Virus record (IMG/VR): IMGVR_UViG_3300025402_000010
Span: 1 to 59,416 of that record
Source of the DNA: a virus
Lineage: Duplodnaviria > Caudoviricetes
Direction: 5' to 3' (one strand)
DNA: 59,416 bases
Positions 19,125-58,758 of the stretch are shown here, piece after piece (positions within the stretch are counted from its first letter, which is position 1; each line of letters begins with the position of its first letter). The notes below the pieces were generated by a model. The model had not been told where the DNA came from, searched no databases, and saw nothing but the letters and a program-made list of their open reading frames with translations. A program made the position numbers and the translations under genes.

Positions 19125-19208
19125 TGGTCGATGGGGAGAGATTCGAACTCCCGTACCCGAAGGATCTGGTTTACAGCCAGACGCGATTGGCCACTCCGCC
19201 ACCCATCG
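19125..19208 (-). tRNA. tRNA-Tyr(GTA), long variable arm, encoded CCA
   Basis: Cloverleaf: CGATGGG/CCCATCG acceptor, TCTGG-CTGTAAA-CCAGA anticodon arm, GGGAG-TTCGAAT-CTCTC T arm, A73-CCA. Confidence 0.92.
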
Positions 19209-19213
19209 ATTCG

Positions 19214-19246
19214 CTGAGGGAGAAGGACTCGAACCTTCAACAAAGG
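19214..19246 (-). pseudogene. 3' half of a disrupted tRNA (T arm and acceptor 3' strand)
   Basis: CCTTTGTT-GAAGG-TTCGAGT-CCTTC-TCCCTCA-G; the acceptor strand is complementary to the 5' half at 20047-20071. Confidence 0.8.
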
Positions 19247-19317
19247 CTCTGGGGCCTCGGGTCGAACGAGGGCTAGAAGTTCCAAAGACTCCGGTGCTAC
19301 CTTTACACTACCCCAGA
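19247..19317 (-). tRNA. tRNA-Gln(TTG)
   Basis: TCTGGGG/CCCCAGA acceptor, GGAGT-CTTTGGA-ACTTC anticodon arm, CCTCG-TTCGACC-CGAGG T arm, G73; overlaps the last codons of the HNH ORF. Confidence 0.88.
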
Positions 19318-19980
19318 ATGTTTTAAGCGTTTACGCACAGCATTATCTGAAACGCCTAATTTTAATCCAACTTGAGTATAGCTGCTTTCTTCAACCATAG
19401 CAAGCAATGTATAATTATCTGGCCAATTAATTTTATTTTTACGAGGATAGCAGCTTCTACAAGTACCTGTTTTGCTGTTTTGCTGTATGTAATTTTTACA
19501 TTTTTCACATTGGCGTCTTGGTTTTTTGGTGCCATAAGTTTCTGTTTGTGAATGACAATTAGGGCAAAGAAAACGAAGGTTTTTTAAACTATTATCAATA
19601 CGATCACCATTGATGTGATCGATTTGGAGTGTTAATTCTTTCTCATTCCAATTGTTATTGATTCCACAAATTGCGCATTTATATTCGATGCCCATCTCTA
19701 GAAGAGCTCTAAGAAGATGAACACGTTGTGTACGCGATGACCCATAGGGTTTTTTTACTAATATTTCTTCTGGTTTTAATTTATCACGATGAATACCATA
19801 AATATTATTATTAGGCAAAAAATGCTTAGTTGATATACCAGCATCTTTAATCCGCTTTGAGTAGTGCCCATGGGTACCACCATTTGGTGATAACCCTAAA
19901 GACCTTAACGCATGCGATATTGATGGAGAATTAGTTACTGCTTCTCTAAGCTGTTCATCTGTTATTTTTTTTCTGCTCAT
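19303..19980 (-). CDS. HNH homing endonuclease
   Basis: CAICG...LQIDHINGDRIDNSLKNLRFLCPNCHSQT; N- and C-terminal HTH-like segments; AT-richer than neighbours. Confidence 0.9.
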   Translation of the reverse strand: MSRKKITDEQLREAVTNSPSISHALRSLGLSPNGGTHGHYSKRIKDAGISTKHFLPNNNIYGIHRDKLKPEEILVKKPYGSSRTQRVHLLRALLEMGIEYKCAICGINNNWNEKELTLQIDHINGDRIDNSLKNLRFLCPNCHSQTETYGTKKPRRQCEKCKNYIQQNSKTGTCRSCYPRKNKINWPDNYTLLAMVEESSYTQVGLKLGVSDNAVRKRLKHSGVV

Positions 19981-20046
19981 ATTTACTTCTATACTCTAAC
20001 GGCAATATTAAATCATTAATTTATATTTACGTTCGAGTCAGTGAGA

Positions 20047-20071
20047 CGTGTTGCCTTTACACCATCCCTCA
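20047..20071 (-). pseudogene. 5' half of a disrupted tRNA (acceptor 5' strand and D arm)
   Basis: TGAGGGA-TG-GTGT-AAAGGCA-ACAC; pairs with TCCCTCA at 19215-19221. Confidence 0.8.
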
Positions 20072-20072
20072 A

Positions 20073-20149
20073 TGGCGATCTTGATGGGACTTGAACCCAC
20101 GACCCCCTCCGTGACAGGGAGGTGCTCTAACCAACTGAGCTACAAGACC
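20073..20149 (-). tRNA. tRNA-Asp(GTC), encoded CCA
   Basis: GGTCTTGTAGCTCAGTTGGTTAGAGCACCTCCCTGTCACGGAGG...GTTCAAGTCCCATCAAGATCGCCA. Confidence 0.95.
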
Positions 20150-20154
20150 TTAAG

Positions 20155-20226
20155 CTCCCCGGGATGGGATCGAACCACCGACCAAGTCATTAACAGTGAC
20201 CCGCTCTGCCGCTGAGCTACCGAGGA
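20155..20226 (-). tRNA. tRNA-Asn(GTT)
   Basis: TCCTCGGTAGCTCAGCGGCAGAGCGGGTCACTGTTAATGACTTGGTCGGTGGTTCGATCCCATCCCGGGGAG; no encoded CCA. Confidence 0.92.
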
Positions 20227-32646: not shown

Positions 32647-32759
32647 AGTGCACTTAGTATTGCAAAAGGGGTCTTAGGCCCCCCGCGATTTTTTTATACG
32701 TGCTTCGTGCCTGCCCATTTGGCCCCCTTCTTGGCCCCTTTTTTAGTGCACCTAGTATT
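32644..32759. repeat. Direct repeat TTTAGTGCACYTAGTATT flanking an inverted AAAAGGGG/CCCCTTTT pair
   Basis: Copies at 32644-32661 and 32742-32759, located at the strand and GC switch. Confidence 0.6.
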
Positions 32760-33162
32760 CAAAGTCCAAAAAGTTGCCATCCTATTATTTGCCTTACTGT
32801 GACGTTTGCATCACCAGCAGAAAAAGATTATGAACTTCTTTTGGTATTCGCCAACTAAGGCGGTACTCCTAACTCAAGGGTGTCCCCGAGAGTGTCACGC
32901 ACGGTATCTCACAGGCATTGTGTGCTGTGAGGGTGTGTGATCGTGCCAGCGTAGACGTAATGCGTCGTGCTGCGTAGTCAAGAGTACTACGAATGCCTCT
33001 CCACGCGTGTGAGCACTGTGCTGCTCAACAATACACGTCTCTGGTGCTGAAGAGTTAGCTGCAGGCGAGGTTCATCAGGAACTACGGTATCCACTACGGT
33101 ACCGTGGTTCGTGATGTGCAACGTATGCACGGGCAGTACCAATAGTCCTGAGGAGGACAACT

Positions 33163-33561
33163 ATGCAGTATTTGGTAATCAACACTTACCGTGACTTCCC
33201 TTTGTTCGGGGGTTGTCACTGGAGTCTTGAGGAGGCTTTCGAGGAAGTCGTCGCTGGTTGGCGCAGTGACATCGAAGAGCCGATCGTCATGAGGCCAACA
33301 ATGGACTACCCATTCGCCAACCGCGTCTCTCTCGAAAAGTCGGGCGAGGACTGGAAGCCAACTCCATTCAAGGCATGGACGACCGGTCCTGACCACCTGA
33401 ACCACTGGTACATCGTGCCATTGTTCGAGTGGGAAGACCGGATGTGCCTTGCAGACGAGCGCACTCCAGAGACAATCGATCAGGGTGATGAGCTCAAGGC
33501 ACAACTCCGTAGGGAGTTCAGCGAAGAGCTTGTCTTCTCCCCAGACGTTACGTCATTGTAA
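33163..33561 (+). CDS. Hypothetical acidic protein (first gene of plus-strand block)
   Basis: GAGGAGG RBS; biased codons. Confidence 0.7.
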   Translation: MQYLVINTYRDFPLFGGCHWSLEEAFEEVVAGWRSDIEEPIVMRPTMDYPFANRVSLEKSGEDWKPTPFKAWTTGPDHLNHWYIVPLFEWEDRMCLADERTPETIDQGDELKAQLRREFSEELVFSPDVTSL

Positions 33562-33675
33562 CATCCGGTGGATGCACTGACTCACGTACAGGATCATTTG
33601 TACGTGGGTTGTGTGGGTCAACCGGGACTCAGTGTCATAGTGGTCGTGCTATGGCGCTTGAAAGGAGGTGAAATC

Positions 33676-33969
33676 ATGACTAAATTTGATGTTTACAAGG
33701 CTGCTAGGGACGCTGCTGAGGCTAAGGTCGAAGCTGCTTTGGCTGCTTACGACGATGCTGGGGCTACGTACTACCCTGCTTTGGCTGAGCTCTGCGCTGC
33801 TCAGGCTGAGCTCGAGGCTGTTAAGGCTGCGTGCAAGGCTGCGTACGACGCTGCTGCGCTCAAGGCTGCTTCGGCTAAGTACAAGGCTGCTTTGGCTGAG
33901 CTCTACGCTGCTAAGGCTGCGTACGACGCTGCTTGGGCTGAGTACAAGGCTGCTAAGGCTGAGCAGTAA
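33676..33969 (+). CDS. Alanine-rich helical repeat protein
   Basis: AGGAGGTGA RBS before ATG 33676; repeated AAYDAA, ALAEL and KAA units. Confidence 0.75.
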   Translation: MTKFDVYKAARDAAEAKVEAALAAYDDAGATYYPALAELCAAQAELEAVKAACKAAYDAAALKAASAKYKAALAELYAAKAAYDAAWAEYKAAKAEQ

Positions 33970-34081
33970 ATAGTCCGGCTCATGCTAGGACCCACGAAGG
34001 AACATCGTCGTGGGTCTCATGGGTCAGTCGGACCCAGTGATCATGACGGTCGTGTCATGACACTTGAGAGGAGGTGAAATT

Positions 34082-34240
34082 ATGACAAATCGTCGCCGCA
34101 GGGCATGGCGCCCCTCTGAGCTGTCTCAAGTCACAGCTCGGTACATCACATTAATTGGATGTGGTGCTGCGATTGCTGCTTCTGCAGTAGTCAGCGTTTG
34201 GATCTTTGTAGAGACTCTTCGTCTCTGCTTCGGTCACTAG
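34082..34240 (+). CDS. Small single-TM protein (52 aa, below ORF-track cutoff)
   Basis: AGGAGGTGA RBS; MTNRRRRAW...LIGCGAAIAASAVVSVWIFV... Confidence 0.65.
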   Translation: MTNRRRRAWRPSELSQVTARYITLIGCGAAIAASAVVSVWIFVETLRLCFGH

Positions 34241-34321
34241 TTCTTCGTTGGGTTCCCACCCAGCACTGCGTGTGTTAGGCAAGCACGTGGTTTAGTAAGT
34301 GCCTAGAAAGGAAACGATACC

Positions 34322-34657
34322 ATGGAATACTTTTACAAGGTTACCTGGTCGTATCAGTCAACCGTCGGTCGGATTGACGAAGACAACTACGAAAGGGTTA
34401 AGTATCGTCCATACATTGGTGTAGTAGAGCCAATGGTCCGCTACTTCAAGTCACTTGAAGACGCAATGGAGTTCTACTCTTCTTACGACTTCACATTCAC
34501 TGTGGACTACGGCCTCGTGGTTGGCGAGCGTTTTGACACGGCAGAAGAACCCTTCTTCCCAGTCAGCGTGGACAACGAGCTCATTGAAGAAGAGACCACC
34601 ATCATCACCACCACTCTCGTTGTAAAGCGAGAGTGCTTCACTGAGATTACTTATTAG
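34322..34657 (+). CDS. Hypothetical protein
   Basis: GAAAGGA RBS. Confidence 0.65.
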   Translation: MEYFYKVTWSYQSTVGRIDEDNYERVKYRPYIGVVEPMVRYFKSLEDAMEFYSSYDFTFTVDYGLVVGERFDTAEEPFFPVSVDNELIEEETTIITTTLVVKRECFTEITY

Positions 34658-34731
34658 TTTCTCATCCGTTCATACGGTATGCGTTGAGCAAACATGCCGT
34701 GCAGTAAGTGCTCAGAAAGGAGGGGGTCATC

Positions 34732-34938
34732 ATGAAGACCAAGACCACCCCACGCACCGCAGTTAGCATCGCTACTGCTCCCAAGTGCTCCTGTGGCTAC
34801 ATCCCCTTGTTCGTCGACTCAACTGTTTGGGTTGACCGCGAGGGTAACAAGCTCCCAGGTATTGTTCCAGTATCCATGACGATCGATGGAGTCCAGCACT
34901 CCGTTGAGAAGTGCGGTACTGAGACCAAGCGCAAGTAG
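34732..34938 (+). CDS. Small Cys-containing protein
   Basis: AAGGAGG RBS before ATG 34732; CSCG. Confidence 0.65.
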   Translation: MKTKTTPRTAVSIATAPKCSCGYIPLFVDSTVWVDREGNKLPGIVPVSMTIDGVQHSVEKCGTETKRK

Positions 34939-35048
34939 TACTCAGGTAGTGCCCTGGCAGGGGGCGTTGTACTCTGCTATCCCATCAACCAACTATAGGT
35001 CCAGTGACTAGGTTTGTCATAGCCTAGCACTGTAGAGGAGGTGAAATT

Positions 35049-35360
35049 ATGACTAAGTCAACCCGCAACATGCGCTTTGCGCAGGTAGTGAAGGAGGAGC
35101 TCTCAGACGTCCTCGTTCGTCCTACCGTGCTCAGCTTCGATGCTATCCAGGAGAAGATTGCTTACTTCGACTCCATGATGGCTCTCGACGCTGACGGTGT
35201 GTGGAAGAAGTGGTACCCACGTACCACTCGTATCACACGCGCTCGCAAGCTTGAGGCCCACTTCTGTGTGGAGAACCCCAAGCAGATCGACGCACGTTCC
35301 AAGAAGGAGCGTCGCCTCGTGTTCTGCGAGACCTGCATCGAGTTCGAGGCAGGACTGTAG
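35049..35360 (+). CDS. Hypothetical protein with C-terminal CxxC
   Basis: AGGAGGTGA RBS; strong codon bias. Confidence 0.7.
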   Translation: MTKSTRNMRFAQVVKEELSDVLVRPTVLSFDAIQEKIAYFDSMMALDADGVWKKWYPRTTRITRARKLEAHFCVENPKQIDARSKKERRLVFCETCIEFEAGL

Positions 35361-35540
35361 TAGGTAACCCATCTAGGTAAGCCCGTGTGCCTAGACGCTG
35401 ACTGTGTAGTACGTGCAGTCAGTGGGTGGGGGTCACTCCCCACCTGGGTACGGTTACCCACGGGTAACCCCCGGCGACTGGGTTAAGTCGAATTATCACA
35501 CGAACGTATTGTGTGACGTAACAAACATTAGGAGACTGCC

Positions 35541-36416
35541 ATGAAGGCATCTACTTTTGTGTCCCTGTCCACCCTCGACTTCAACGAGGAGGAGCTGTCA
35601 ACTGACCTTGACATCCTTCTCTTCGCTGACGAGGAGACGTCCGCTCAGTCAGACGGAGCCGTGCGTGTAGCGCGTCTCAACAAGACTGAGGCCATCACCC
35701 TGTCAGGTCTTTCTACTGACCTGGTGATCGGTCGCGGGCTCGCTGACTTCCGCAAGGAGTACTTCGACTGTGTCGTTGACTCCGAGGGGAAGATTGGTAG
35801 CTTCGTAGGCAAGCCCCTCCCCCAGGGTATTGTCTTCGACGCCACCTCCAAGCGTGACCGTGCGTACGGTACCCACGTGTACAACATTGCAGCGGCTCTG
35901 TCGCCTGCCTCTGTTGTCCACAGCGGTATGGTCTACGGTAAGTCGTTCCTGGCTAACCGTATGCAGGTTCAGATTGCATCTGACTTGCAGACCGACCCTC
36001 GTACCGGTGAGAAGTTCTACTTCATCGGTGTGCGTCGCTTCGGTATCCTCTCAGAGGCTACTGACTTCGCGTACCGTGACACCGGTCGTGGTGGCGTGCA
36101 GGCGCGTATCAAGTTGTACACCAACGTTGAGAAGGGTACCTTCTACTTCAAGGTGTTCAACAAGCTCACGCAGAAGCACGACCGCATCTACCAGGTTCCT
36201 GGTGACGTGCAGTGGTACGACCTCGTTAAGACTCGTCTTAACATGGCTCTGCCATCCGGCGCGTCGCGGTTGGACATCTACACCTCCGAGCTCAACAAGC
36301 TCGACGAGAACGTTGCTGAGGACCTGCGTGGTACCCAGCTGATGTTCTTCGAGGTGTACAAGACTGCCAAGGCTGCTATCATCGCGGCCAAGGTAGTGGA
36401 CGCCCCACAGGCCTAG
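35541..36416 (+). CDS. Hypothetical protein, apparently highly expressed
   Basis: 291 aa; AGGAG RBS; very strong codon bias. Confidence 0.75.
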   Translation: MKASTFVSLSTLDFNEEELSTDLDILLFADEETSAQSDGAVRVARLNKTEAITLSGLSTDLVIGRGLADFRKEYFDCVVDSEGKIGSFVGKPLPQGIVFDATSKRDRAYGTHVYNIAAALSPASVVHSGMVYGKSFLANRMQVQIASDLQTDPRTGEKFYFIGVRRFGILSEATDFAYRDTGRGGVQARIKLYTNVEKGTFYFKVFNKLTQKHDRIYQVPGDVQWYDLVKTRLNMALPSGASRLDIYTSELNKLDENVAEDLRGTQLMFFEVYKTAKAAIIAAKVVDAPQA

Positions 36417-36575
36417 TCAGCCCCCAGTCCTGAGTCAGACTGGGTTACCTTAAACTGACTCGCCCCCACACCCACAGATGTTGTGTGTGCCCTCGAAGGG
36501 AGTGTGGGGGTCTATGCCGCAACGTATGCAGCAGAACATGTATCATACATACATGTAGTAGTAAAAGGAACAAGC

Positions 36576-36857
36576 ATGGATGCATTCCGTGTTATTGCAA
36601 TCGAACGCAAGTTCGGTAAGGTAGTCAACCGTACCATGTTGGGAGATGTATATTCCAACGTGAATCGTGCCAAGTATCAGTTGCGTACTTGGTATGGAGT
36701 GAAACGGTTCAACGAAGTGGCGGACAGGCTAATTGTGGGCTCATGCCGCCCCAGGTGGCACACAAAGCTCACGTTCGTCATCGCGCAACAGTCTTACTAC
36801 GAGGAGATCGCTAGCTACACCAGCGATGAGCTCGAGGAGATTGCAGCTAATGGCTGA
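36576..36857 (+). CDS. Hypothetical protein
   Basis: AAAGGA RBS before ATG 36576. Confidence 0.6.
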   Translation: MDAFRVIAIERKFGKVVNRTMLGDVYSNVNRAKYQLRTWYGVKRFNEVADRLIVGSCRPRWHTKLTFVIAQQSYYEEIASYTSDELEEIAANG

Positions 36858-36926
36858 GGAGTACACCGATTGGTGGAGAGTATTCAACCAGGTGCCTAGG
36901 GTCTAGGGCCTAGTTGTAACTCAAAT

Positions 36927-36942
36927 TGTTTCACGTGAAACA
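36927..36942. promoter_or_regulatory. parS: parS site 1 (ParB/Spo0J loading site)
   Basis: Perfect palindrome TGTTTCACGTGAAACA, the canonical chromosomal parS consensus. Confidence 0.85.
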
Positions 36943-36962
36943 TATGTGTTTGTCTAAGCATA

Positions 36963-36978
36963 TGTTTCACGTGAAACA
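36963..36978. promoter_or_regulatory. parS: parS site 2
   Basis: Second perfect TGTTTCACGTGAAACA, 36 bp after the first. Confidence 0.85.
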
Positions 36979-37377
36979 TTCCCCGCATGGGGGGATATAT
37001 TTAGCTAAAGCTAACTCCTCCCATTGCATTTATGTTCATTGATGCGTACGTAAGGCATCGCAATACCATACCAATGTATGTTAAGTGGGTGGGTTCTATG
37101 AACCCGAGGTATGCTTGTTGACCTTGATGGCCCTAAACGTATCCTGCCATGTATACGTGCATACATACATGACTGTGCATGGCTAAGCATTTTTCCGTAT
37201 GTTAACGGGTATGTGCCTACATTGGTGTGGTATTGGGATGTCTTAAAATTTTTATGTGTGTTTAGACACACATGACATCCTCATATTCCTGCTCTAGTTG
37301 GATTTATATAGCAGGGGTATGGTTGTATATGTACTTACTAAGTAAGTAAGCTACAAATAGTATCAAAGGAATAACCC

Positions 37378-37596
37378 ATGGCAATAGTAACTGCCGAAGA
37401 GGTGCTGTCCAAAATATTGGCCAATGCCTGCCCTAGCAAACTACTCGATGGTGAGTACAAGTTGTTTCTCATAGAGACACACTGCGTCAATTGGCACGTG
37501 CAAGCCAAAATCATCCAAGAACCCTCGGACGACCAAGGTTGGTTGTTCGAAGTGCGTTCAATCGAGCCAGTAAACGAGGTGGTATATGATGACTGA
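37378..37596 (+). CDS. Hypothetical protein
   Basis: AAAGGA RBS. Confidence 0.6.
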   Translation: MAIVTAEEVLSKILANACPSKLLDGEYKLFLIETHCVNWHVQAKIIQEPSDDQGWLFEVRSIEPVNEVVYDD

Positions 37597-38074
37597 CCCT
37601 ATCCAGGCGTTGTTCGACCGCATCATGGAGGATGCACGTGATCAAAAGAGGGCAGAATCAAGTTATTACAACCTTGGTGACTTGATCGATGCCCTCGAGG
37701 GGATTGATTCAACTCTCCCCGTTGAGTTCACGTCAGCTGATAACAGGTACGGCAACGACCAACCAGGTGAGTTCTTCAGCTGGCGTGGTGACTACCACGA
37801 GCTTGCTCTTGGCTATTGCACCTCTAAGGTATACGACTGGAACACCAGTGAATACATCCCAGTTCCACCGCCCACCGTTGGTAGCTTGCTTGCTCGATGC
37901 ATTGCCGCTGATGGTGCTACCTTTGAGGGTTACAAGGGTGGTGACTTCACAATGAATCGGTCGTGCAGGATCTTTGTAGAGTTTGACCAGTCTTACTACA
38001 ATGGCCCGCAGATTGCTGATGTAACTGTGGTCGATGGCAAGTGCCTCATCAAGCTTGAGAACTGGACTGAGTAA
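37586..38074 (+). CDS. Conserved phage hypothetical protein
   Basis: LGDLIDAL...SWRGDYHELA...FEGYKGGDFTM motif seen in many phage early regions. Confidence 0.7.
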   Translation: MMTDPIQALFDRIMEDARDQKRAESSYYNLGDLIDALEGIDSTLPVEFTSADNRYGNDQPGEFFSWRGDYHELALGYCTSKVYDWNTSEYIPVPPPTVGSLLARCIAADGATFEGYKGGDFTMNRSCRIFVEFDQSYYNGPQIADVTVVDGKCLIKLENWTE

Positions 38075-38297
38075 CAATGTACCATCACTCAGCTCTATGC
38101 AAGTGTGGTGAGTATTACTTGCTTGATGTTTGTTGCGGTGAGTATGTTCGTCGAGTTTCTACTGACGAACTAATCAACGAAGTACATGTTGACATCGGAA
38201 ACCATGCACCTACTGGGTGCAACGATGAGTACCGCAACCATTAAGCAGTAACAATACCCAAGTAGGGTAGTAGTAAACAAACACATGGAGATCCCCT

Positions 38298-38735
38298 GTG
38301 GACATAGTAACACCAAGCAGTGCCCCCGACTCGTTCGGGTTCATACCAATAGATGCTGAGACCAGCACTGATAACGAGTACCAAAATTGGGTTAAATGCT
38401 TGTGCAAATGTGGCAACTGGTTTGAGCTGGACTTTGGTGACGAGACTACGGATTTGATTGTTCACCGCGAACGCCCAGGTAATGAAGCAGTTATCAGTAT
38501 TGTTCTTTCCAAGCCTGAGCTTGAGAAGTTGCTCGAGCTTGTGCAGAAAGCATTGGCTGGGCAACCAGAGGCTACAAAAGAACCAGACGAGAAAGAACCA
38601 TTTCATCCATATCCTGATGCTGTAGAAAAACATTACTGCAGTTATTGTGACTGTGAGTACTACAAGCTTGAGGATGGTACGATAACGCCTTGTTGTTGCA
38701 CTGATGATGAAACAATTGAACAGGAGGAATGTTGA
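38298..38735 (+). CDS. Hypothetical Cys-containing protein
   Basis: GGAG RBS, GTG start, AAGTA hairpin upstream. Confidence 0.65.
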   Translation: MDIVTPSSAPDSFGFIPIDAETSTDNEYQNWVKCLCKCGNWFELDFGDETTDLIVHRERPGNEAVISIVLSKPELEKLLELVQKALAGQPEATKEPDEKEPFHPYPDAVEKHYCSYCDCEYYKLEDGTITPCCCTDDETIEQEEC

Positions 38736-39013
38736 TGAGCAGAACACACATCAAACCAAAGTCCAAACTGTGGTGGAAAAAGGTTGCTGCTGCTTGGGAA
38801 GAGCAAGAGCGCCCGGATGCACCACACGCTGGTACTGCGTGGCCTAAGCAGATAGAGAAGCGGCACAGGAAGCGCACTCTACGAGCAGACAAGAAGGGTA
38901 ATCCCTTTCGTATCTGGTGGTCTGATGACCCACCCCAGAAGCCAGTGGCTCACAAATGGGAGCGTCGAGTACGTAAGCAACAGGTGCTACGTGAACAACT
39001 AGAGGAGGAATAA
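38735..39013 (+). CDS. Basic hypothetical protein
   Basis: TGATG-coupled; Arg/Lys/Trp-rich. Confidence 0.6.
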   Translation: MSRTHIKPKSKLWWKKVAAAWEEQERPDAPHAGTAWPKQIEKRHRKRTLRADKKGNPFRIWWSDDPPQKPVAHKWERRVRKQQVLREQLEEE

Positions 39014-40791: not shown

Positions 40792-41094
40792 ATGGCTATT
40801 TCAATGAAGCAAGCAGCACCAGCACCAGCTGCGCAGGGTTCAACCATAAGTAAGTTGTTCCAGGAACGTCGTCTGACGCTCATGGAAAACCCTGGTGTGT
40901 GGTACGAATACAGCAACAATCTGCGAGCTAACACCATGGGAAGCGTTCTTTCCAGCCTTTGTGGTGTCAAGCTCCCTGCTTTAAAGGGAATTGATCGTAA
41001 GCTGTTGCCCTACCAGGTGGCATCACGACGTATGGAAGACGGGACCTATTCGGTCTTTGCTCGTTACGTGGGTGAACAACAAGAGTGGGTATAG
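40792..41094 (+). CDS. Putative small DNA-binding protein
   Basis: LMENPGVW...VASR...VFARYVG pattern common in actinophage early proteins; AAGGAG RBS. Confidence 0.55.
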   Translation: MAISMKQAAPAPAAQGSTISKLFQERRLTLMENPGVWYEYSNNLRANTMGSVLSSLCGVKLPALKGIDRKLLPYQVASRRMEDGTYSVFARYVGEQQEWV

Positions 41095-41188
41095 CCCCGC
41101 TACTGTGTGTGGAACCTAACTCCACACATATCACGCACGTAATGTAAACTGGCTTGGTGGGAGCCAGCACAGAATCCCACCATCTAAC

Positions 41189-41758
41189 ATGAAAGGTACA
41201 AGGTACATGCGTAAACTGACAAGTTTGCTGTTGCTGAGTGCTTTTATTGTTGTCGGTGTTGATGTTAATAGCATTGGCGATAAGGGGCATGCTCCAAACG
41301 CCAGTGTCTATGTGACACCAAGGTTACCTGCTCCCGCATTTCAGGTGCAGGATGTCACGATGGCTAATATTCAAGCATACGTGATGAGCCAACCACGTGT
41401 GGTTGTTGAACCTACGCAACGATGGAACACTAAGCGCAGTGACCCAACAGCAACATGGCCTGATGCTACTGACCCAACGCGGCGATTGCCGATGGCAGTG
41501 CAAGTTAAGTTTGCTTGCATTCGTTATCACGAGAGCCGCAACCATCTACATTCTGTTGAGATACACAGTGGTGCTGGTGGTTGGTATCAGTTCATCCCAT
41601 ACATTTGGGATTATGCAAGGGCGAACATACCTGGTTTACCAGCGTTAGCTTCACAAGCTACCGGTGATGAACAATCTAAGGTAGCAATGTGGTATTACAA
41701 ACGTAACAACGGATTCACTCCCGAGTGGAGTGCAGACGCAGGCGTTTGCAACCTGTAA
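41189..41758 (+). CDS. Secreted/anchored lysozyme-like transglycosylase (Rpf-like)
   Basis: Signal/TM segment (LLLLSAFIVVGV); C-terminal CIRYHES...GAGGWYQF...W...ASQATGDEQ...W...C; start may be the MRKL ATG. Confidence 0.75.
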   Translation: MKGTRYMRKLTSLLLLSAFIVVGVDVNSIGDKGHAPNASVYVTPRLPAPAFQVQDVTMANIQAYVMSQPRVVVEPTQRWNTKRSDPTATWPDATDPTRRLPMAVQVKFACIRYHESRNHLHSVEIHSGAGGWYQFIPYIWDYARANIPGLPALASQATGDEQSKVAMWYYKRNNGFTPEWSADAGVCNL

Positions 41759-41815
41759 GTTATACAGGCGGTATGGGCTCCACCGTGACGGGCCTACTCA
41801 CCCAAGGAGGGCATT

Positions 41816-42127
41816 GTGATTGAATCAATTGACAATTTATCAATGAGCAAAGAACTTATTGAACGTTGGCAACACGTTGAACAAGCACTTACTGAGTGTT
41901 TGGAGCTAGCATTAAAAGAATCAAATGGTCAAGAAGATGTATGGATTCCTGATTGGGCTGTGCCTCTTTTTGAAAGAATGCAGGAAAACACTGATGAAAA
42001 CACTGATGACAATCAGGATGCACGTATCCAAGCTGCGTTGAAAGATTATCAGGAGAATCCTGAAGAGTACACATACGCTGACCTTGAAGCTATCTTTGAG
42101 GACCGTGACCCAGTGGAGTTTCTTTAA
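41816..42127 (+). CDS. Acidic hypothetical protein
   Basis: AAGGAGG RBS; C-terminal DRDPVEFL. Confidence 0.65.
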   Translation: MIESIDNLSMSKELIERWQHVEQALTECLELALKESNGQEDVWIPDWAVPLFERMQENTDENTDDNQDARIQAALKDYQENPEEYTYADLEAIFEDRDPVEFL

Positions 42128-42128
42128 C

Positions 42129-42386
42129 ATGAGTATTACAAACACAATCTCAGGAAATTACTTGGACTTTGAATCCAAGTGCCAATGCGGCGACGAACGA
42201 TGCCACAGTTTGTGGGTTGGCAATGGCACACCACAATTGGATGGCAGTCTTGAGTTTGTTTCAATTGCACCGAATAAAGAAAATGGTGAAGGCGTAATGC
42301 TTCACTTTTCTCAGGTTCTTGAACTGTACAAGAAACTAGATCAGTTTGTTGCATCAGTTAAGTACCACGGTACAGAAAACAGGTAG
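42129..42386 (+). CDS. Hypothetical protein
   Basis: ATG 42129 directly after the preceding stop; CQCG...CH. Confidence 0.55.
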   Translation: MSITNTISGNYLDFESKCQCGDERCHSLWVGNGTPQLDGSLEFVSIAPNKENGEGVMLHFSQVLELYKKLDQFVASVKYHGTENR

Positions 42387-42529
42387 CAACAAGCAGGGCC
42401 GGGTGTTGTACTGCCCGGCTACTGCGATGTATACACGAGCAATCATGGCTGTTCGTGTATACATCGGAGTAGTCATAAACCCTGCTACTCTGTATCAAAT
42501 TAGTAAGGGCAAACATCAAGGAGAAATCC

Positions 42530-42976
42530 ATGAGCGTTAACAACATGAGTCAGATTATTAAGAACGTGCTGGAAGTTACAGACACGGTTCTTGAACGTCC
42601 TGCTACTCGCAACGAAGTAATCAAGGTGCTCGAGCTCATCGAATCATTTAAGATGGGCAAGACAATTGACAACGCACTTCCAATGCCAACACCACAGCCA
42701 GTGGATGTTGTCAAGGTTGAACGCAAGAAGCCAATGCGTCCAGCAACCAGCATTCGTTGGAAGCAGCACAAGGAATGGCTTGACGCTATTCTTGACGGTC
42801 AGCCGCACATCATTCCGTATTCCAACCTTGAATTGGTGATCCCATTCAAGAAGTTTGGTAACGACAACATGCGCACTCGACTGTACCGTGAGGCTGTCAA
42901 GCGTGGTTACAAGACAGCGACTATCTCATTCGACAACAAGTCGAAGTCGTTGTTTGTGCAGGCTGTAGCCAAGTAA
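42530..42976 (+). CDS. Hypothetical (possibly DNA-binding) protein
   Basis: AAGGAG RBS; basic C-terminal domain. Confidence 0.65.
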   Translation: MSVNNMSQIIKNVLEVTDTVLERPATRNEVIKVLELIESFKMGKTIDNALPMPTPQPVDVVKVERKKPMRPATSIRWKQHKEWLDAILDGQPHIIPYSNLELVIPFKKFGNDNMRTRLYREAVKRGYKTATISFDNKSKSLFVQAVAK

Positions 42977-42982
42977 CAGGTC

Positions 42983-43053
42983 ACTGCAGTAGCTCAATGG
43001 TAGAGCAACCTGGTTAACCAGGTAGGTTGTGGGTTCGATTCCCACCTGCAGTA
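42983..43053 (+). ncRNA. tRNA-like RNA with non-canonical palindromic anticodon arm
   Basis: ACTGCAG/CTGCAGT acceptor, GCTC-AATGGTA-GAGC D arm, GTGGG-TTCGATT-CCCAC T arm; anticodon arm is ACCTGGTTAACCAGGT with no 7-nt loop. Confidence 0.8.
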
Positions 43054-43123
43054 CGGTTCACATACCAACCCAGGTATGTGCCCGGTGTTCCCAAGCACCG
43101 TTAAACACAGGGAGAAACATATT

Positions 43124-43882
43124 ATGACCACTGAATTCATCGAGGGAATCCCGGTTCCCCAGTGCTTCATTGACCTTAACGATGTACTTGCTGCAGGTTG
43201 CAAGCGTGTCATCCTCTACGGTCCCCCCGGCACTGGTAAGACGTATTCAGCTCAGACCCTGCATGTCAATGCAGCTGGGTTCGAGACTCTCCTTTGCTCC
43301 GAGGACATGAGCAATGCTGACATTGTCGGCGCCATGCTTCCTAACGAGCGTGGTGGTTTCTCGTACGTCAAGGGCATCGGTCCAATCACCTGGGATGGTG
43401 ACGGTACTGTTGGTGGTCGTCTCGTTGTTGACGAGATCAACCGTGCCAGCGGTGACGTTGTCACCACGTTGATGAAGTTCCTCGACAGTCCGGAGTCGGC
43501 GGTCTGGAAGAATCCTTACACTGGTGAAGTTCACTTCCCACGTGAGGGCTTCTCTGCCATCATGACCACCAACTTTGAGGATCCCAACGAGATCGAGGGT
43601 CCGCTGCGTGACCGCTTCCCGGTTGCAATCAAGATTGACGCTGCTCACCCAGCTGCGTTGGTCTCTGCATTGCCACCAGAGTTGCGCATGTTGGCTGCGA
43701 CTATCGTTGCTGGTCGTCCCGGTGAGCGTGCTTCGCTACGTGCCTGGAAGGAATTCCAGACGCTGCGCAACAGCCCTCTGTTCACCACTGAGCGTGCTGC
43801 CAAGCTGGTATTCGGTAAGATGGCTGACCCCATCATCGATGCCATCCGCATCGGCACCCTTAACACGGAAGTGTCACTGTAA
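43124..43882 (+). CDS. MoxR/CbbQ-family AAA+ ATPase
   Basis: Walker A GPPGTGKT, Walker B LVVDEINR, sensor MTTN, arginine finger LRDRF; GGGAG RBS before ATG 43124. Confidence 0.88.
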   Translation: MTTEFIEGIPVPQCFIDLNDVLAAGCKRVILYGPPGTGKTYSAQTLHVNAAGFETLLCSEDMSNADIVGAMLPNERGGFSYVKGIGPITWDGDGTVGGRLVVDEINRASGDVVTTLMKFLDSPESAVWKNPYTGEVHFPREGFSAIMTTNFEDPNEIEGPLRDRFPVAIKIDAAHPAALVSALPPELRMLAATIVAGRPGERASLRAWKEFQTLRNSPLFTTERAAKLVFGKMADPIIDAIRIGTLNTEVSL

Positions 43883-45345
43883 TGGTTGACGAGCAGAAGC
43901 CCCTTGTAGGGGCAATCACTGCGTTCCGTGACGACGTAGCTGAGCCGATTGACTGGACTATTCAGCCCACTGTGGGTCAGAATGGTGTCGGTGTCGACTG
44001 GGCTGCAAAGGTACTGGCCGTCCCCCTTCGGGGGGACGACTGGTCCCGTCGTACGCAGCTCCGTGAGCTTATCCGTGCTCGTATATCACCTACGACTGGT
44101 GATGTAGCCAGGGTATTGGCCGATGGTTACAAGAACCAAGGGGTCAACAATGCTCTTCTCAATCTTGCAGAGGAGGCTCGTATCAACGCTGTTACTGAGC
44201 CTTTTGCCAAGATTAAGGGTCTTGAGCTTGACTCTACCGGTGCGGAGAAGAAGTCAGGTATCCGTATGGCAACGTCCGGTAGCCCTAACGACTGGGAAGA
44301 TGCAGTCGACTTCACTGTTCGCAACTACGCCAACAAGTCAGCATTCGACTCGTTTGCTGCTGGCGTACGTTCTGTGAACCCAGAGTGGAGTGACAGGCTA
44401 CGTAGGCTTGCTGGTCGCCTTGATAGTATCTTTGAGGGTACGCCGGATGACATTGGTTCTACCATGCCGTATTACTACAGTAGTGACGTGGTTGGTCCAA
44501 GGGGTTACAACAATACTCTTGTTGCAGCCTCTGAGATTGCCATCTATGCCAATGGCAAGCGCGCTCCTAGTGATGTTAAGCAACAGCGCCAGGATGATGA
44601 CGACAAGGCTCTTGAGGAGTATGGTGAGACGGAGCAGGAAACCAACCGTCTTAATCCTGACCAGACAATGCTCGAGGACGAGTTGCCTAACGACTTTGAG
44701 TTCCCTCACGACGAGAACGGAGATTTTGCGGAGCTTGTCATTGACGACACGCTTCCACTATCTGTCCAAGTCGAGGGGTTCATGAAGCGTAAGCGTAAGC
44801 CTGTTCTTGTCGGTCGTAAGATCGGTAACATTACCAGGTTCTACACTGACCCCGAGCGTCGTATCTTTACCCAGAAGATGCGTGTCAAGGGTGGCATGGT
44901 CATCATCGACATCTCAGGTTCTATGTCTCTGTCGCAGCAGGACATTGAATCAATTGTCGAGGCAGCACCTGCTGCTACCATCCTTGCATACAGTCAGACT
45001 CACTACCTTGACGCTAACGCGTGGCTCCTTGCCAAGCGTGGCTGGCGTGTACGTGAGATTCCATCTATCGGTGGTGCTGGTAACGGTGTTGACGGTCCTG
45101 CTCTGGTATGGGGCATCAAGAATCGTCACCCTAACGAGCCAATCATCTGGGTAACAGATGGTGAAGTCACTGCTGACGGTGGTGGTCAGAACGACCGCAT
45201 CATTATTCAGTGTGCTCAGTTGGTCAAGAAGCACAAGATCATCATGATTCCTTCTGTTGCAGAAGCAGTCAAGATGTTCAAGTCCGGTAAGCTTATCAAC
45301 AAGCCTGCCGGTCCGATTCGCAAAGCGCTTCTTGGTCGTCTGTAG
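43882..45345 (+). CDS. VWA-domain protein (MoxR partner, CobT-like)
   Basis: MIDAS motif IIDISGSMS...GGAGN...WVTDG; TAATG-coupled to the ATPase. Confidence 0.8.
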   Translation: MVDEQKPLVGAITAFRDDVAEPIDWTIQPTVGQNGVGVDWAAKVLAVPLRGDDWSRRTQLRELIRARISPTTGDVARVLADGYKNQGVNNALLNLAEEARINAVTEPFAKIKGLELDSTGAEKKSGIRMATSGSPNDWEDAVDFTVRNYANKSAFDSFAAGVRSVNPEWSDRLRRLAGRLDSIFEGTPDDIGSTMPYYYSSDVVGPRGYNNTLVAASEIAIYANGKRAPSDVKQQRQDDDDKALEEYGETEQETNRLNPDQTMLEDELPNDFEFPHDENGDFAELVIDDTLPLSVQVEGFMKRKRKPVLVGRKIGNITRFYTDPERRIFTQKMRVKGGMVIIDISGSMSLSQQDIESIVEAAPAATILAYSQTHYLDANAWLLAKRGWRVREIPSIGGAGNGVDGPALVWGIKNRHPNEPIIWVTDGEVTADGGGQNDRIIIQCAQLVKKHKIIMIPSVAEAVKMFKSGKLINKPAGPIRKALLGRL

Positions 45346-45461
45346 TACAAAGTCTTTGAGTAACTAGATACTCAAGTCACTGGGTGTAGTCACACACGTA
45401 TGAGGTGTGACTACACCCGGATGCACCAAGTAGGTGCAACATTAAACATTGGGAGATAATC

Positions 45462-45839
45462 ATGGAAGATTTCAACTTCGGTGACCTTACCCTCGACGAA
45501 GCAACAGTTTCACGTGTTGCTCATGCAGAGTTTCTTAACTCTATTAAAGAATGGGGTTCCAAGATGGGCATGGTATTACAGCCCTTCATTGGTGTAGCCA
45601 ACATTCTTATGGAGGATGAGATTCCAGAAGATCAGTTGGACAAAATTTCTGTTGCGTTCCCACTTGGTTTGCGCCTTGCGCTTAACCACATGAACTCTCT
45701 GTATGACATCATGCAGAAGGAAGCAATCAAGGTACTCGGTGCACCTTTTGCTATCCACGGTGAGCACCACCCAGAGTGCGATGGCACCAAGGATGGCTGT
45801 GGTCACCAGGACCACTGGCTAGAGAAGGAAGGAGAGTAG
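45462..45839 (+). CDS. Hypothetical protein
   Basis: GGGAG RBS; His/Cys C-terminus. Confidence 0.65.
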   Translation: MEDFNFGDLTLDEATVSRVAHAEFLNSIKEWGSKMGMVLQPFIGVANILMEDEIPEDQLDKISVAFPLGLRLALNHMNSLYDIMQKEAIKVLGAPFAIHGEHHPECDGTKDGCGHQDHWLEKEGE

Positions 45840-45840
45840 T

Positions 45841-46008
45841 ATGAACGAAGCAGAAGCTTACAAAGAGTTAAGCCTTAATCTACTGTACGTAATTGAGGAG
45901 ATTGTTGACGCGCTCAAACCTATTGGTCTTGACTTGTCTTCATTGCCTCACTACGAAGAGATGATTAACAATGCCCGCGCAGTATTGGGTGATAGCTCTA
46001 ACGACTAA
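45841..46008 (+). CDS. Small hypothetical protein (55 aa)
   Basis: Manual translation MNEAEAYKELSLNLLYVIEEIVDAL...; AAGGAG RBS. Confidence 0.6.
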   Translation: MNEAEAYKELSLNLLYVIEEIVDALKPIGLDLSSLPHYEEMINNARAVLGDSSND

Positions 46009-55691: not shown

Positions 55692-56026
55692 GATTGCTCT
55701 CTCCCCACCATTAAACCGTGAATTGTAGTGTAACTTGCATTATCAATACTAGGCCCATGTACTACTGTGAATTTTCCACCTTTATGACCATCAAGCCCAT
55801 TAGGGTCATAAATTGCAGTATCTTCACTAGACTTTCTACATCCACCATTTGAGCAATGATGAATTATTGCCATAAACGGACGCCATTGCTCTCGGTACAT
55901 TTTTTCATTGCTTGTACCAGGCACTCTTCGCCATTGTTTATTACCAAAATTAAACTCATAGGCATTACTTAAACCACCTATGAACCTAGTGTTATCGTCA
56001 CTAGAGTAACGTAAATTCCAGTTCAT
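55688..56026 (-). CDS. Small protein with MNWNLRYS leader
   Basis: ATGA-coupled to the terminase; carries the shared leader. Confidence 0.6.
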   Translation of the reverse strand: MNWNLRYSSDDNTRFIGGLSNAYEFNFGNKQWRRVPGTSNEKMYREQWRPFMAIIHHCSNGGCRKSSEDTAIYDPNGLDGHKGGKFTVVHGPSIDNASYTTIHGLMVGREQS

Positions 56027-58758
56027 CGTCTACCTGGCCTTCCCCGAGACATACCACCGTAATCACGCTGTGAACGCTGCGCACCAAACACACGTAGCCT
56101 ATCTCTAGCAGAGACAGGTTGCATATCGTTAGCGTTGCGGGTGTGGTAGCCACCCTGAGAACCAGACAATAGCTGTGTTTGACCAAGTTTATCACGCATT
56201 TCTAGCTTAACAAAGTTATCTTCTAGTAGAGAATCAACAATAACCATGAGGCAGTCAGATAAGTCTTCTGTACGGATAGGTCCAATATCTTGCTTCTTAA
56301 CTCGACCATTGACCTCTTGCAAGAACTTTAGCTCTTGCTCTAGCAAACTTGTTCCATTGGGGCCATACACATCACGGAACGAGTGTACCCAATTCATACC
56401 CAATGCAGATTTGAATCGTTCAGCACGACGCATGTTGCTTTCTTTGGTAAATTTTTCTTCACGCACCTTAACCTGGTGGGCAGGTCTAACCTGTTGCAAA
56501 CGCTTTTTTAATCGTGGCAATGTAACAAACGCACCGTATTGGTCAAATGAGAAAACCTTAGTTGTACGGAAATTGCATAACGTATCAACTAATTCCTCCT
56601 CTATCTCTTCGTAGTCGATCTGATTATCAGGGTAGTTTTCGGGGTCCCATACCTTGATCCAGTCAATAACAACGTGGTACCACTCTTCACCGTCTTCAGG
56701 GTCAGCGATCTTTTCTACGTGACCAATCATGGCTGCTGTATTAGCACCGGATTTTGATGGGTCGCAGTGGCCCGTGTAAACAATGCTAAATTTGCCTTCG
56801 TGCTGTAGCTCAAGCTCTCGAAGCTCACCATTAGCATCAATAAACGGATCAAACATACGCTCAACCATTTTTGGATTGAGGTAAGCATTAGTAACTTCAG
56901 CCCATTGGCTTAGACGCTCAACCCTAAACGTGTCAGGCTCACGCTTTTCCATGGATTGCATTTGTTCGTCGTAGCTCTGAGGTGCACGACGGTAAAACGA
57001 AACAAATCTTGGGTCATCCCAGTCTTCGTATGGCCCCCACGATGGTAGCTGTGCCATCATCATGTTTGGATACATGGGTGCACCGTCTTCATTCTTCTCT
57101 AACGCAGACTCGTACAGGCTGTATGCTTTACCAACCTTGGTATTGTGGCTAAACATACCAGCAGCAAGCAATGTGCTAGTAGAAGTACCCAGAGCAATAA
57201 CATCGCGGTTGCCCGCATCTTCTATGGACTCAACAGTAACATACTTGGACGTCTTATCATAAATTCTTGTGCCATAGAATTGGTTAGTAAATTTTGAGAG
57301 TAAACGACGTGGTCGGATTGAACCGAGGAACTTCATCTTTTCCGATGAACCACCATTGATAATAATATCAATGCAATCTCTTCCTTCTTCTTTTAATGTT
57401 GTGCTAATATCACAACCACGTTCGATAAGTAACTCAACGATGTTATCTAATACTGGGCCTTTATTCTGTGCTATGCCGAGCAAACCCTGCTTAGAATAAT
57501 AACCTTCGCCATCGAATATCCCTGAAAGATAACCAGCATCGTATGATTTGTCTGTTTCCCATGTATCCGTGTAACGAATCATGTCACCCGGCTTAAGATT
57601 TTTGGTTTTAACCCAGTTTAATTCAGAAGAATAAGGCTTCTTTGTTAGCCAAAGGTGCTCACCGGTGCAAACAACTTCAGGACCATCAGTTTTTAATTTA
57701 AGTGTTGGAGCGTTGATAATAGATGTTTCTTCAACGACTGCTTGACGCCAGCTTCTACCGTTGCCCTTGCCACCTGGAGCATACTCATCAAAACCAATTA
57801 TCTTATCCCCGACTTTTAATGAACCGACAGGAACCCACGTGAGGTCTTCTAGAAGGACCGGAGTCTCCGGTACCAAACAAAACGGTGATGTGGGTACGTA
57901 AATCAAACCATCTTTACCCATCTGGTCCAATGCAGGGGTAATAGCGTTGTATACTTCGTCAGACGTTCTTGCACCACCCGTACCGACCAACATGTGTGCA
58001 AACTCGTCGAACATAACGCCAAAGGCAGCAGCACCACGCGAGGCTTTAGAGTTACTCGTCACAGCCATGTTACGGATACTAGCGATCAAACGGCTAGGTC
58101 TGATGTCTCTCGATTCAAATGCGGCGATGCGTCTGATGTCAGCAGGCGTACGCAAAGCAAGAAAGTGCTCCTTAGCGTCAGCAATATATGGCTGGAAGCA
58201 TGGAGCATTAATGATGGTGTTTGCAAGGTCAGCAAACTGGTATTTCTTAGCCTGTTCAATGTTCGTAGCAACGCAAAACAGGTAAAGGTCTTTTGACTTG
58301 TCAATGTTGTAGTAGTACTGGGGGTCGTCAAGCATAAGCAGTTCCCAGTTTTTATATGCACCCAGGATTCCGCCAATGTGGCCCTTACCGCCACGACGAC
58401 CCGTGATGTTTACCACTTCACGAAAATGCTTGTAACCATTTGCTTTCAAGTATGCGATCCGGTCAAGGATGTCCGGGCTTACGCCTATTCTATCACCGTT
58501 AAAATCAAAATCTTTGGTCCACTTATCAATGATTTCGTAGTCATAATCGTCAAGGTTTTCTGTCTCAAGCATGATAAGTTTAAGAAGCGTGCGTTGACGT
58601 GGGAAAAGCTTACTACCACCCAAGAAGCTTGGGTGCTCAGCAAACGTGACAATATCAGGTAGATCAGCCTTTTCTTTGAGGCTTTTCTTGGCTATCTCAA
58701 AGAAGTCTTGCTGTCCACGAAGAATGTTAGCATTACTATTCTTTGTAATTTTAGGCAT
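56023..58758 (-). CDS. terL: Terminase large subunit (intein-containing)
   Basis: Adenine-binding FPRQ, Walker A GRRGGKG, Walker B VMFDE, nuclease HCDPS...FDQY...EDLSD. Confidence 0.88.
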   Translation of the reverse strand: MPKITKNSNANILRGQQDFFEIAKKSLKEKADLPDIVTFAEHPSFLGGSKLFPRQRTLLKLIMLETENLDDYDYEIIDKWTKDFDFNGDRIGVSPDILDRIAYLKANGYKHFREVVNITGRRGGKGHIGGILGAYKNWELLMLDDPQYYYNIDKSKDLYLFCVATNIEQAKKYQFADLANTIINAPCFQPYIADAKEHFLALRTPADIRRIAAFESRDIRPSRLIASIRNMAVTSNSKASRGAAAFGVMFDEFAHMLVGTGGARTSDEVYNAITPALDQMGKDGLIYVPTSPFCLVPETPVLLEDLTWVPVGSLKVGDKIIGFDEYAPGGKGNGRSWRQAVVEETSIINAPTLKLKTDGPEVVCTGEHLWLTKKPYSSELNWVKTKNLKPGDMIRYTDTWETDKSYDAGYLSGIFDGEGYYSKQGLLGIAQNKGPVLDNIVELLIERGCDISTTLKEEGRDCIDIIINGGSSEKMKFLGSIRPRRLLSKFTNQFYGTRIYDKTSKYVTVESIEDAGNRDVIALGTSTSTLLAAGMFSHNTKVGKAYSLYESALEKNEDGAPMYPNMMMAQLPSWGPYEDWDDPRFVSFYRRAPQSYDEQMQSMEKREPDTFRVERLSQWAEVTNAYLNPKMVERMFDPFIDANGELRELELQHEGKFSIVYTGHCDPSKSGANTAAMIGHVEKIADPEDGEEWYHVVIDWIKVWDPENYPDNQIDYEEIEEELVDTLCNFRTTKVFSFDQYGAFVTLPRLKKRLQQVRPAHQVKVREEKFTKESNMRRAERFKSALGMNWVHSFRDVYGPNGTSLLEQELKFLQEVNGRVKKQDIGPIRTEDLSDCLMVIVDSLLEDNFVKLEMRDKLGQTQLLSGSQGGYHTRNANDMQPVSARDRLRVFGAQRSQRDYGGMSRGRPGRR
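57142..57879 (-). mobile_element. Intein with LAGLIDADG homing endonuclease in terL (246 aa)
   Basis: Begins CLVPETPV after PTSPF; block B CTGEHLWL; YLSGIFDGEG; ends FSHN followed by Thr. Confidence 0.9.

Follow-up and report, generated by a model that had tools for sequence, protein, structure and literature searches.

In animal mitochondria, transfer RNAs (tRNAs) punctuate the transcripts, and in bacteria tRNAs and messenger RNAs (mRNAs) occur in co-transcripts, e.g., that of the tufB operon. The t-elements of plant mitochondria are believed to act in cis as signals to RNase P and RNase Z, according to a passage in PMC1920247; enzymes of the same two kinds cut the tRNA-like structures of MALAT1 and MEN-beta, which releases a small tRNA-like RNA, and RNase P also processes mRNAs and phage regulatory RNAs, both as stated in a section of PMC4919922. 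Part of a preprint on precedent tRNA-like elements describes them as CCA-tailed and not aminoacylated (bioRxiv 10.1101/2024.09.09.612099). Here, we report a tRNA-shaped element in an uncultured phage, at positions 42983-43053 of IMG/VR virus record IMGVR_UViG_3300025402_000010, in which the anticodon loop is closed into a hairpin. The element stands between two open reading frames (ORFs) on the same strand, just upstream of a MoxR-type AAA+ ATPase gene, and has relatives at the same junction and at others, some of them reduced to minihelices. Our preferred explanation, to which we give about an even chance of being right, is that it may serve as a cis-acting RNase P and 3' tRNA-processing signal punctuating a polycistronic phage mRNA. 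The window, i.e., the whole stretch of DNA that was analysed, is the 59,416-base record itself, whose estimated completeness is 39%.

A cloverleaf with a closed arm in place of the anticodon loop

The element keeps the full set of L-shape features, with G18 and G19 in the D loop and TTCGA in the T loop (Table 1). It scores 60 bits against Rfam family RF00005 (gathering threshold 29; model positions 1-71), which places it within the tRNA fold, and its minimum free energy structure is a cloverleaf of -30.7 kcal/mol (z = -3.9) with a 6-base-pair (bp) arm and a UUAA loop; none of 200 shuffled sequences folded as well. The arm at the anticodon position is 16 nucleotides (nt) long as against the standard 17, and ARAGORN returns 'tRNA-???' with a 2-nt 'anticodon' (ta), implying a 6-nt loop. 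The combination of a 7-nt loop, U33, purine 37 and a 5-bp stem that a decoder would have is not found in the element. The original prediction on this DNA, a tRNA-like RNA with intact acceptor, D and T arms and a palindromic arm, is borne out by the sequence, the Rfam score and the fold, and the undetermined ARAGORN call that it foresaw was obtained. It had also placed the element far from the tRNA cluster, rightly, with the ordinary tRNAs of the window on the opposite strand. The missing CCA to which it pointed is real but not distinctive, as an encoded CCA is also absent after two of the four ordinary tRNAs. All tRNAs of the window (19128-20226, minus strand) and of two related contigs, G001 and G002, whether genuine or mimic, have C at position 74, and some are followed by the full CCA.

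The closed arm is not an assembly error. Contigs from four sequencing runs were compared with positions 42850-43250 and none has an indel; three of the four show no difference across the element, and the fourth, from another year and another study, has five substitutions at 42892-42968, all in the upstream gene, with the element unchanged. The same arm is also present in further assembled contigs (L026, L046-L049). The 16-mer of the arm occurs in 22 contigs of IMG/VR, inside a tRNA-like element only in the contig of a close relative and elsewhere by chance, and the 21-mer of T arm plus acceptor occurs in just four contigs, all of the same clade. The 14-mer of acceptor plus D stem was uninformative: it is found in at least 119 stretches, and 78 of the 80 scanned have no tRNA at the match.

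Full and mini forms at the MoxR junction and elsewhere

The downstream AAA+ protein served as the anchor for finding relatives, with 10 viral and 34 metagenome loci fetched, and the 200 nt before the AAA start codon were taken as the leader. There were 25 distinct leader sequences, five of which were set aside (L063, truncated; L074-L077, whose proteins are distant, at 39-44%, and stand in unrelated high-GC contexts); the other 20 leader types are the basis of the junction counts. A tRNA-like element is found at the MoxR junction in 17 of the 20, as a full cloverleaf in 11 (10 distinct element sequences) and as a mini element in six (four distinct). The mini forms at this junction are 42-45 nt long and consist of a 7-bp acceptor, a 10-13-nt connector, a 5-bp T stem and a TTCRANT loop, with neither D arm nor anticodon arm. 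Immediately before the AAA gene, ARAGORN predicts a tRNA at 7 of the 10 viral and 13 of the 34 metagenome loci. The core common to all members is the coaxial minihelix of acceptor and T arm with a canonical T loop and a free discriminator.

The arm, on the other hand, varies freely. Its length in the 10 full forms is 16, 16, 13, 17, 16, 17, 15, 17, 14 and 17 nt, its stem has 4-7 bp and its loop 3-5 nt save one of 8 nt; none is canonical, and 8 of the 9 distinct arms close to 3-5-nt loops. A working decoder with an unusual loop, i.e., a two-base reader with a 6-nt loop, a frameshifting tRNA or a suppressor, would be in keeping with the 6- or 8-nt loops and the 'anticodons' (tca and cat among them) that ARAGORN gives in several relatives. 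Those labels, however, disagree among syntenic relatives (ta, cat, tca, att, ata, aat, ataa, tc), so that neither anticodon nor loop size is conserved. U is universal at position 33 of tRNAs, yet no full form among the 10 has a U33 in a 7-nt loop; by our own reading of the segmentation, C stands there in the four distinct arms of 17 nt that are able to open to a loop of that size, and in four distinct elements the arm is gone altogether. We therefore regard a decoder as very improbable. The relatives' loops (CAT, ATT, AAT, TTA, TCA, TTCA, CATAT, GTAT) are not self-complementary; a self-complementary loop (TTAA) occurs only in the lineage of the window, and the dimerising RNA that had been suggested was rejected.

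Pairing in the acceptor, D and T stems holds for 98.8% of the alignment cells over the 10 full forms, and double changes occur in 7 of the 16 pairs, which none of 500 shuffles reached; controls in which the alignment was slid gave 34-56% paired. The leader (42977-43123) differs at 1 of 146 positions between the window and G002, its closest relative (99.3% identity); no stretch of the region is more conserved, the identity being 75.8% for the upstream gene, 93.9% for the AAA gene and 86.5% for the VWA gene. Judged from the double changes in the stems, selection acts on the structure. The arm that is one base short, and the best database similarity, which is to phage tRNA-Asn and tRNA-Met genes, might suggest a tRNA pseudogene in decay, an attP-type remnant or an assembly artefact missing one base; those nearest matches in the phage collection (84-86% over 55-60 nt) amount to generic tRNA similarity. 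Against an artefact stand the contigs of four runs; against decay or an att site stand the compensatory changes on both acceptor strands and the absence of a broken stem in all 10 full forms. Because of the stem covariation and the near-identical leader beside diverged genes, a decaying pseudogene and an att-site remnant are ruled out, and we give this whole group of explanations hardly any credence.

Several claims of the original prediction can be judged at this point. That the RNA is non-decoding and that its intact pairing speaks against decay are both upheld, the first by an arm that is variable, never canonical and deleted in four mini forms, the second by stems kept through compensatory changes in syntenic relatives. 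The normal 7-nt loop in reads or relatives that would have counted against it appears neither in the contigs of the four runs nor in any relative, and conservation in relatives, which it had proposed as a check, is what we find at the same junction.

The family extends beyond this junction. Whole fetched contigs were scanned for minihelices in which a 7-bp acceptor is combined with a T arm of 5 bp and a TTCRA loop, a search for which shuffled sequences give 0.1-0.3 matches per genome at the strict setting. G001 (131,916 bases, 89% complete; the contig of L027) carries five elements in total. A second closed-arm cloverleaf was recognised there by Rfam and ARAGORN at 111452-111521 (L199:953-1023; arm GCGAAC-GTAT-GTTCGT), 5.8 kilobases upstream of the MoxR-linked one, and three minis lie at 123284-123331, 124587-124634 and 125250-125300 (L210:3884-5900), for which Rfam gives nothing at E up to 1. 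Two further contigs, G003 and G004, have three minis each, one of those in G004 being doubtful with three G-U pairs. Over the 10 mini forms, double changes occur in all seven acceptor pairs; a caveat on these rows is given below. In the window itself, the strict scan returns just the element and the four ordinary tRNAs (shuffled mean 0.1), and the extra matches of a relaxed scan are at chance level only (shuffled mean 8.85). In the three tRNA-bearing stretches that we looked at in Mycobacterium phage Tonenili, a distant relative that is in culture, all 33 ARAGORN tRNAs have 3-nt anticodons, minis not having been searched for there; one of these tRNAs (L220:2315-2386) has the anticodon cta of the amber-suppressor type and is unrelated to our finding. 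Actinomycetia phage DSL-LC01, the sole cultured MoxR match (31%), lacks a tRNA-like element ahead of its AAA gene and has only three tRNA matches, all high-scoring.

The position of the elements is regular. All those of G001, G003 and G004 are on the MoxR strand, and none of 13 elements is spanned by a same-strand ORF of at least 50 amino acids (aa). The upstream ORF ends 6-58 nt before the element (6-14 nt in 11 of the 13), and the next start codon is 20-78 nt past it in 12 of the 13; the exception is the element at G001 111452, where the start in the table, 2 nt away, is that of a mechanical 52-aa ORF; the genuine one is likely ~170 nt downstream. The paralogous cassettes of G001 run from stop codons through GGTN, a mini element, a small hairpin CTCCCARGTWGGGAA, an A-rich stretch and AAGGAG to ATG, and downstream of each element in G001, G003 and G004 come a small hairpin, a stretch rich in A and a Shine-Dalgarno sequence; the ribosome-binding site is strong at the four elements of G001 other than the MoxR-linked one. 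Counted by eye, GGT at -4 to -2 precedes about 9-10 of the 13 elements of the window, G001, G003 and G004. In G001, four further elements precede genes other than MoxR. The element family is thus not MoxR-specific and its link to MoxR/VWA is positional; the location upstream of these genes (AAA start at 43124) was given correctly in the original prediction, without being specific to them.

Such a cassette could also be a structural or regulatory module independent of tRNA enzymes, i.e., a cistron insulator, a protein-binding site controlling MoxR-VWA translation, or a recombination cassette. Repetition of the whole intergenic cassette with paralogous flanks in G001, G003 and G004 would suit this idea, as would the leader shared by the window and G002 despite diverged flanks, for which protein binding or recent exchange is possible. 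The two hairpins that follow the element in the leader (Table 1), with covariation in 5 of their 14 pairs, persist in L054, which is without the tRNA-like element. However, what is kept across divergent sequences is a TTCRANY T loop, a 7-bp acceptor on a 5-bp T stem and a free discriminator, which is the module of tRNA enzymes, and a structure of this kind in a bacterial cell would be expected to meet RNase P, as we infer from a section of PMC4919922. We hold a module of this type to be distinctly unlikely.

A candidate processing signal and its surroundings

The processing signal that we favour builds on the observed fold, the conservation with covariation, the loss of the decoding loop, the inter-ORF position and the copies at other junctions. 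A tRNA gene would have been converted into a non-decoding, tRNA-shaped cis-signal, which would be transcribed as one with the gene before it and the MoxR-VWA pair. Since a tRNA shape would then stand in the message 6 nt past a stop codon, its excision by host tRNA enzymes is to be expected: host RNase P would recognise the acceptor-stem/T-arm minihelix and cut between 42982 and 42983, and a host 3' activity (RNase Z, or RNase E with exonucleases) would cut after 43053. The upstream message would thereby be split from the MoxR-VWA message and end just past its stop codon, and the downstream message would start at two conserved hairpins (43059-43100), a possible shield for its 5' end; 5' hairpins protect bacterial mRNAs. 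The by-product would be a small L-shaped RNA, which may receive CCA and which could not decode because its anticodon loop is closed into a 6-bp/4-nt hairpin; closure or deletion of that loop would keep it out of translation. Among the three roles offered by the original prediction, an RNase P/Z signal fits best with the same-strand inter-ORF position, the several copies and the acceptor/T-arm core, cleavage being what we infer from these.

Please note that a number of points weigh against this reading. Three of the 20 leader types (L054/L072, L070 and L073) carry other hairpins instead of a tRNA-like element. The window and G002 carry one element each, at one junction among about 40 plus-strand ORFs, and a general punctuation system is excluded in the phage of the window because the element stands at that one junction only. 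Six of the 10 mini rows came from a scan that accepted perfect or near-perfect pairing only, which builds in part of their paired percentage, though not their sequence diversity. The D arm and the stable closed arm of the full forms exceed what a bare RNase P signal needs, and a function of the released RNA could account for them; likewise, the near-identity of the window and G002 leaders, loops included, exceeds the needs of pairing. Co-transcription and cleavage are both predicted from DNA sequence. In L054:430-600 (and in L072), two hairpins with stems of ~17 bp stand at the place of the tRNA-like element. They may represent a swap of one processing signal for another.

The excess of structure leads to the alternative that the released tRNA-shaped or minihelix RNA acts in trans, as a decoy or sponge for factors that bind the acceptor and T arm (e.g., defence toxins targeting tRNA 3' ends) or by titrating tRNA-processing enzymes. 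L-shape features and a stable closed arm kept beyond the needs of a cutting signal, the several copies in some genomes and the very high sequence conservation would all agree with it, and phage tRNAs have been proposed, in a passage of PMC10264068, to counter tRNA-targeting defences. A decoy for anticodon nucleases is unlikely even so, as it would need to mimic an anticodon loop and this one is closed, variable or deleted. Moreover, the position is fixed between ORFs and no promoter of its own is apparent: no plus-strand sigma-70-like promoter was found in window 41000-46000, where three terminator-like sites lie on the plus strand, none of them in the leader (six in total, as compared with a shuffle mean of 4.2, within chance). 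Nor was a defence or counter-defence gene recognised nearby, Pfam on 17 plus-strand ORFs and PHROGs on six (five shared) giving only AAA/ATPase-type domains and domains of unknown function; ten further plus-strand ORFs, part of the 17, hold no RNA-related gene by Pfam. Toxins that act at the acceptor end, of the MenT, CapRel and GNAT types, might bind such an RNA. An action in trans, the decoy role of the original prediction included, is in our view possible but unlikely. The bolder idea that a freshwater actinophage-like clade converted tRNA genes both to punctuation cassettes and to CCA-tailed mini-tRNA sponges for acceptor-attacking toxins is a long shot; if true, it would unite mRNA processing and counter-defence in one device of a kind not known from phages.

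Table 1. Features of the window discussed in the text
Feature	Position	Strand	Details
Non-decoding tRNA-like element, 71 nt	42983-43053	plus	sequence, ARAGORN, Rfam, fold, covariation
Acceptor ACTGCAG/CTGCAGT	42983-42989 / 43046-43052	plus	7/7 Watson-Crick pairs
D arm, stem GCTC/GAGC, loop AATGGTA	42992-43006	plus
Closed hairpin arm ACCTGG-TTAA-CCAGGT	43008-43023	plus	perfect 16-nt palindrome; 6 bp + 4-nt loop
Variable loop AGGTT	43024-43028	plus
T arm GTGGG-TTCGATT-CCCAC	43029-43045	plus
Discriminator A	43053	plus	followed by CGG, hence CCA not encoded
Upstream ORF, 148 aa	42530-42976	plus	ORF list; stop TAA 42974-42976, 6 nt before element
5' flank GGTC	42979-42982	plus	columns invariant in alignment A2
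Leader hairpin 1, CACATACC-AACCCA-GGTATGTG	43059-43080	plus	RNAalifold, 9 leaders: 8 pairs, 3 with compensatory changes
Leader hairpin 2, CGGTG(T)-loop-(G)CACCG	43083-43100	plus	RNAalifold: 6 pairs, 2 with compensatory changes
Shine-Dalgarno-like GGGAG and ATG (43124) of AAA gene	43110-43126	plus	start conserved in leader alignment
MoxR-type AAA+ ATPase gene, 252 aa	43124-43882	plus	Pfam AAA_5 3.9e-15; PHROG 'ATPase' 9e-23
VWA gene, 487 aa	43882-45345	plus	N-terminal helical domain and C-terminal VWA domain
Ordinary tRNAs Tyr, Gln, Asp, Asn	19125-20226	minus	ARAGORN
Portal and large terminase genes	5484-7817, 56023-58758	minus

As to the neighbouring genes, the upstream 148-aa ORF has no Pfam or PHROG match, and 9 of the 16 loci examined with tblastn have a homologue of it upstream of the element. 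The 487-aa protein has no Pfam match, including none to a TROVE domain; its residues D343 I344 S345 G346 S347 are invariant in 14 orthologues, which we take to be a MIDAS-type (metal ion-dependent adhesion site) motif, DxSGS. Its structural model has a mean predicted local distance difference test score (pLDDT) of 73.5, and its best Foldseek matches are VWA domains, weak at E 0.17 and worse. The two genes form a MoxR-VWA pair: the first codes for an AAA_5-type ATPase and the next for the protein with this motif, the VWA fold matches being weak. The N-terminal helical domain of the same protein (residues 1-245, window 43882-44620) matches no family or fold, and its residues 50-245 mostly have pLDDT of 80-95. 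MoxR-VWA pairs are proposed as assembly chaperones in part of a comparative jumbo-phage study (PMC7824862); nothing ties the present pair to RNA.

The source is an uncultured freshwater phage with an actinophage-like head, because the portal protein is ~40% identical to portals of Bixzunavirus-type mycobacteriophages (with the ~40% found for Tonenili as well) and Gordonia phages, and because the 22 runs listed, 20 of them holding the stretch of the window, are all freshwater or unspecified metagenomes. The portal similarity hints at an actinobacterial host. The window spans both ends of the related 122,797-base contig G002 (window 32716-33109 matching G002 394-1, and 38583-38738 matching 122614-122459), which points to a genome that is circular or circularly permuted; nothing in that contig corresponds to window 33110-38582. 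At the place of the window tRNA-Tyr(gta), G002 has a weak tRNA at 13677-13747 (L202:1378-1451; Rfam 30.1 bits; ARAGORN Ile, tat).

Comparison with known tRNA-like systems

tRNA-like processing signals are already known in organelles and in vertebrate long noncoding RNAs (lncRNAs), and RNase P cuts some bacterial mRNAs and phage regulatory RNAs. We found no description of a conserved, non-decoding family of tRNA-shaped or minihelix intergenic elements in phages in the full-text literature, where most subscription journals are not covered, and the t-element literature gave organellar precedents only. If true, our preferred reading would mean that a virus recruits essential host tRNA enzymes to set its message ends, hence the stability and stoichiometry of its messages, a task done in T7 by RNase III hairpins. 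The series from closed-arm cloverleaf to 42-nt minihelix would then be a natural deletion analysis of what the enzymes require in vivo. There is also a consequence for annotation: ARAGORN labels such elements tRNA-Met, tRNA-Asn(att), tRNA-Tyr(ata), tRNA-SeC or 'undetermined', calls which would swell the number of tRNAs counted in phages and point to suppressors that are not real.

Ordinary phage tRNAs share the fold and the Rfam family with the element, which differs from them in having no 7-nt loop or conserved anticodon, in being solitary and in its strand, opposite to that of the tRNA cluster of the window. The tRNA-like domain of transfer-messenger RNA (tmRNA) and the mini forms are alike in having acceptor and T arm without an anticodon arm. 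ARAGORN reports no tmRNA in the window, no tag reading frame was found, and G3-U70, the alanine identity element, is in no listed acceptor stem. YrlA is a tRNA-mimicking noncoding RNA encoded beside a VWA-containing Ro/Rsr protein, according to passages in PMC4201824 and PMC7824862. It pairs with a protein that has both TROVE and VWA domains, whereas the 487-aa neighbour of our element has no TROVE domain by Pfam and the elements also precede unrelated genes; with weak VWA fold matches, and with a score of 16.4 bits for the YrlA/Y RNA model RF02553 as compared with its gathering threshold of 69, a Ro/Y-RNA partnership was rejected.

The two RNAs released from MALAT1 and MEN-beta, mascRNA and menRNA, are closer in kind. 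mascRNA has a reduced anticodon loop, and as in the class of t-elements and mascRNA, the phage element is non-decoding with no functional anticodon loop. The mascRNA-menRNA model RF01684 nevertheless gives only 18.8 bits on it (gathering threshold 42.5, E = 0.2), so it is not a member; those RNAs are eukaryotic and nuclear and lie at lncRNA 3' ends, whereas the phage element lies between ORFs of a bacterial virus. In mitochondrial and tufB punctuation, the likeness is that tRNA-shaped units between coding regions set the cut sites of a polycistronic transcript, and the difference is that those units are decoding tRNAs, while the decoding loop of the phage element is closed or removed. If RNase P and RNase Z cut the elements, they would be the phage counterpart of mitochondrial tRNA punctuation and of plant t-elements. 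Like the t-elements, they are tRNA-like structures beside protein-coding sequence, in a transcript presumed from the DNA; t-elements are organellar, whereas these belong to a bacterial virus, where cleavage would be the work of its host. Unlike the t-elements, the phage family spans the range from a closed-arm cloverleaf to minihelices of 42-51 nt, and in some genomes it comes with a repeated cassette of hairpin and ribosome-binding site.

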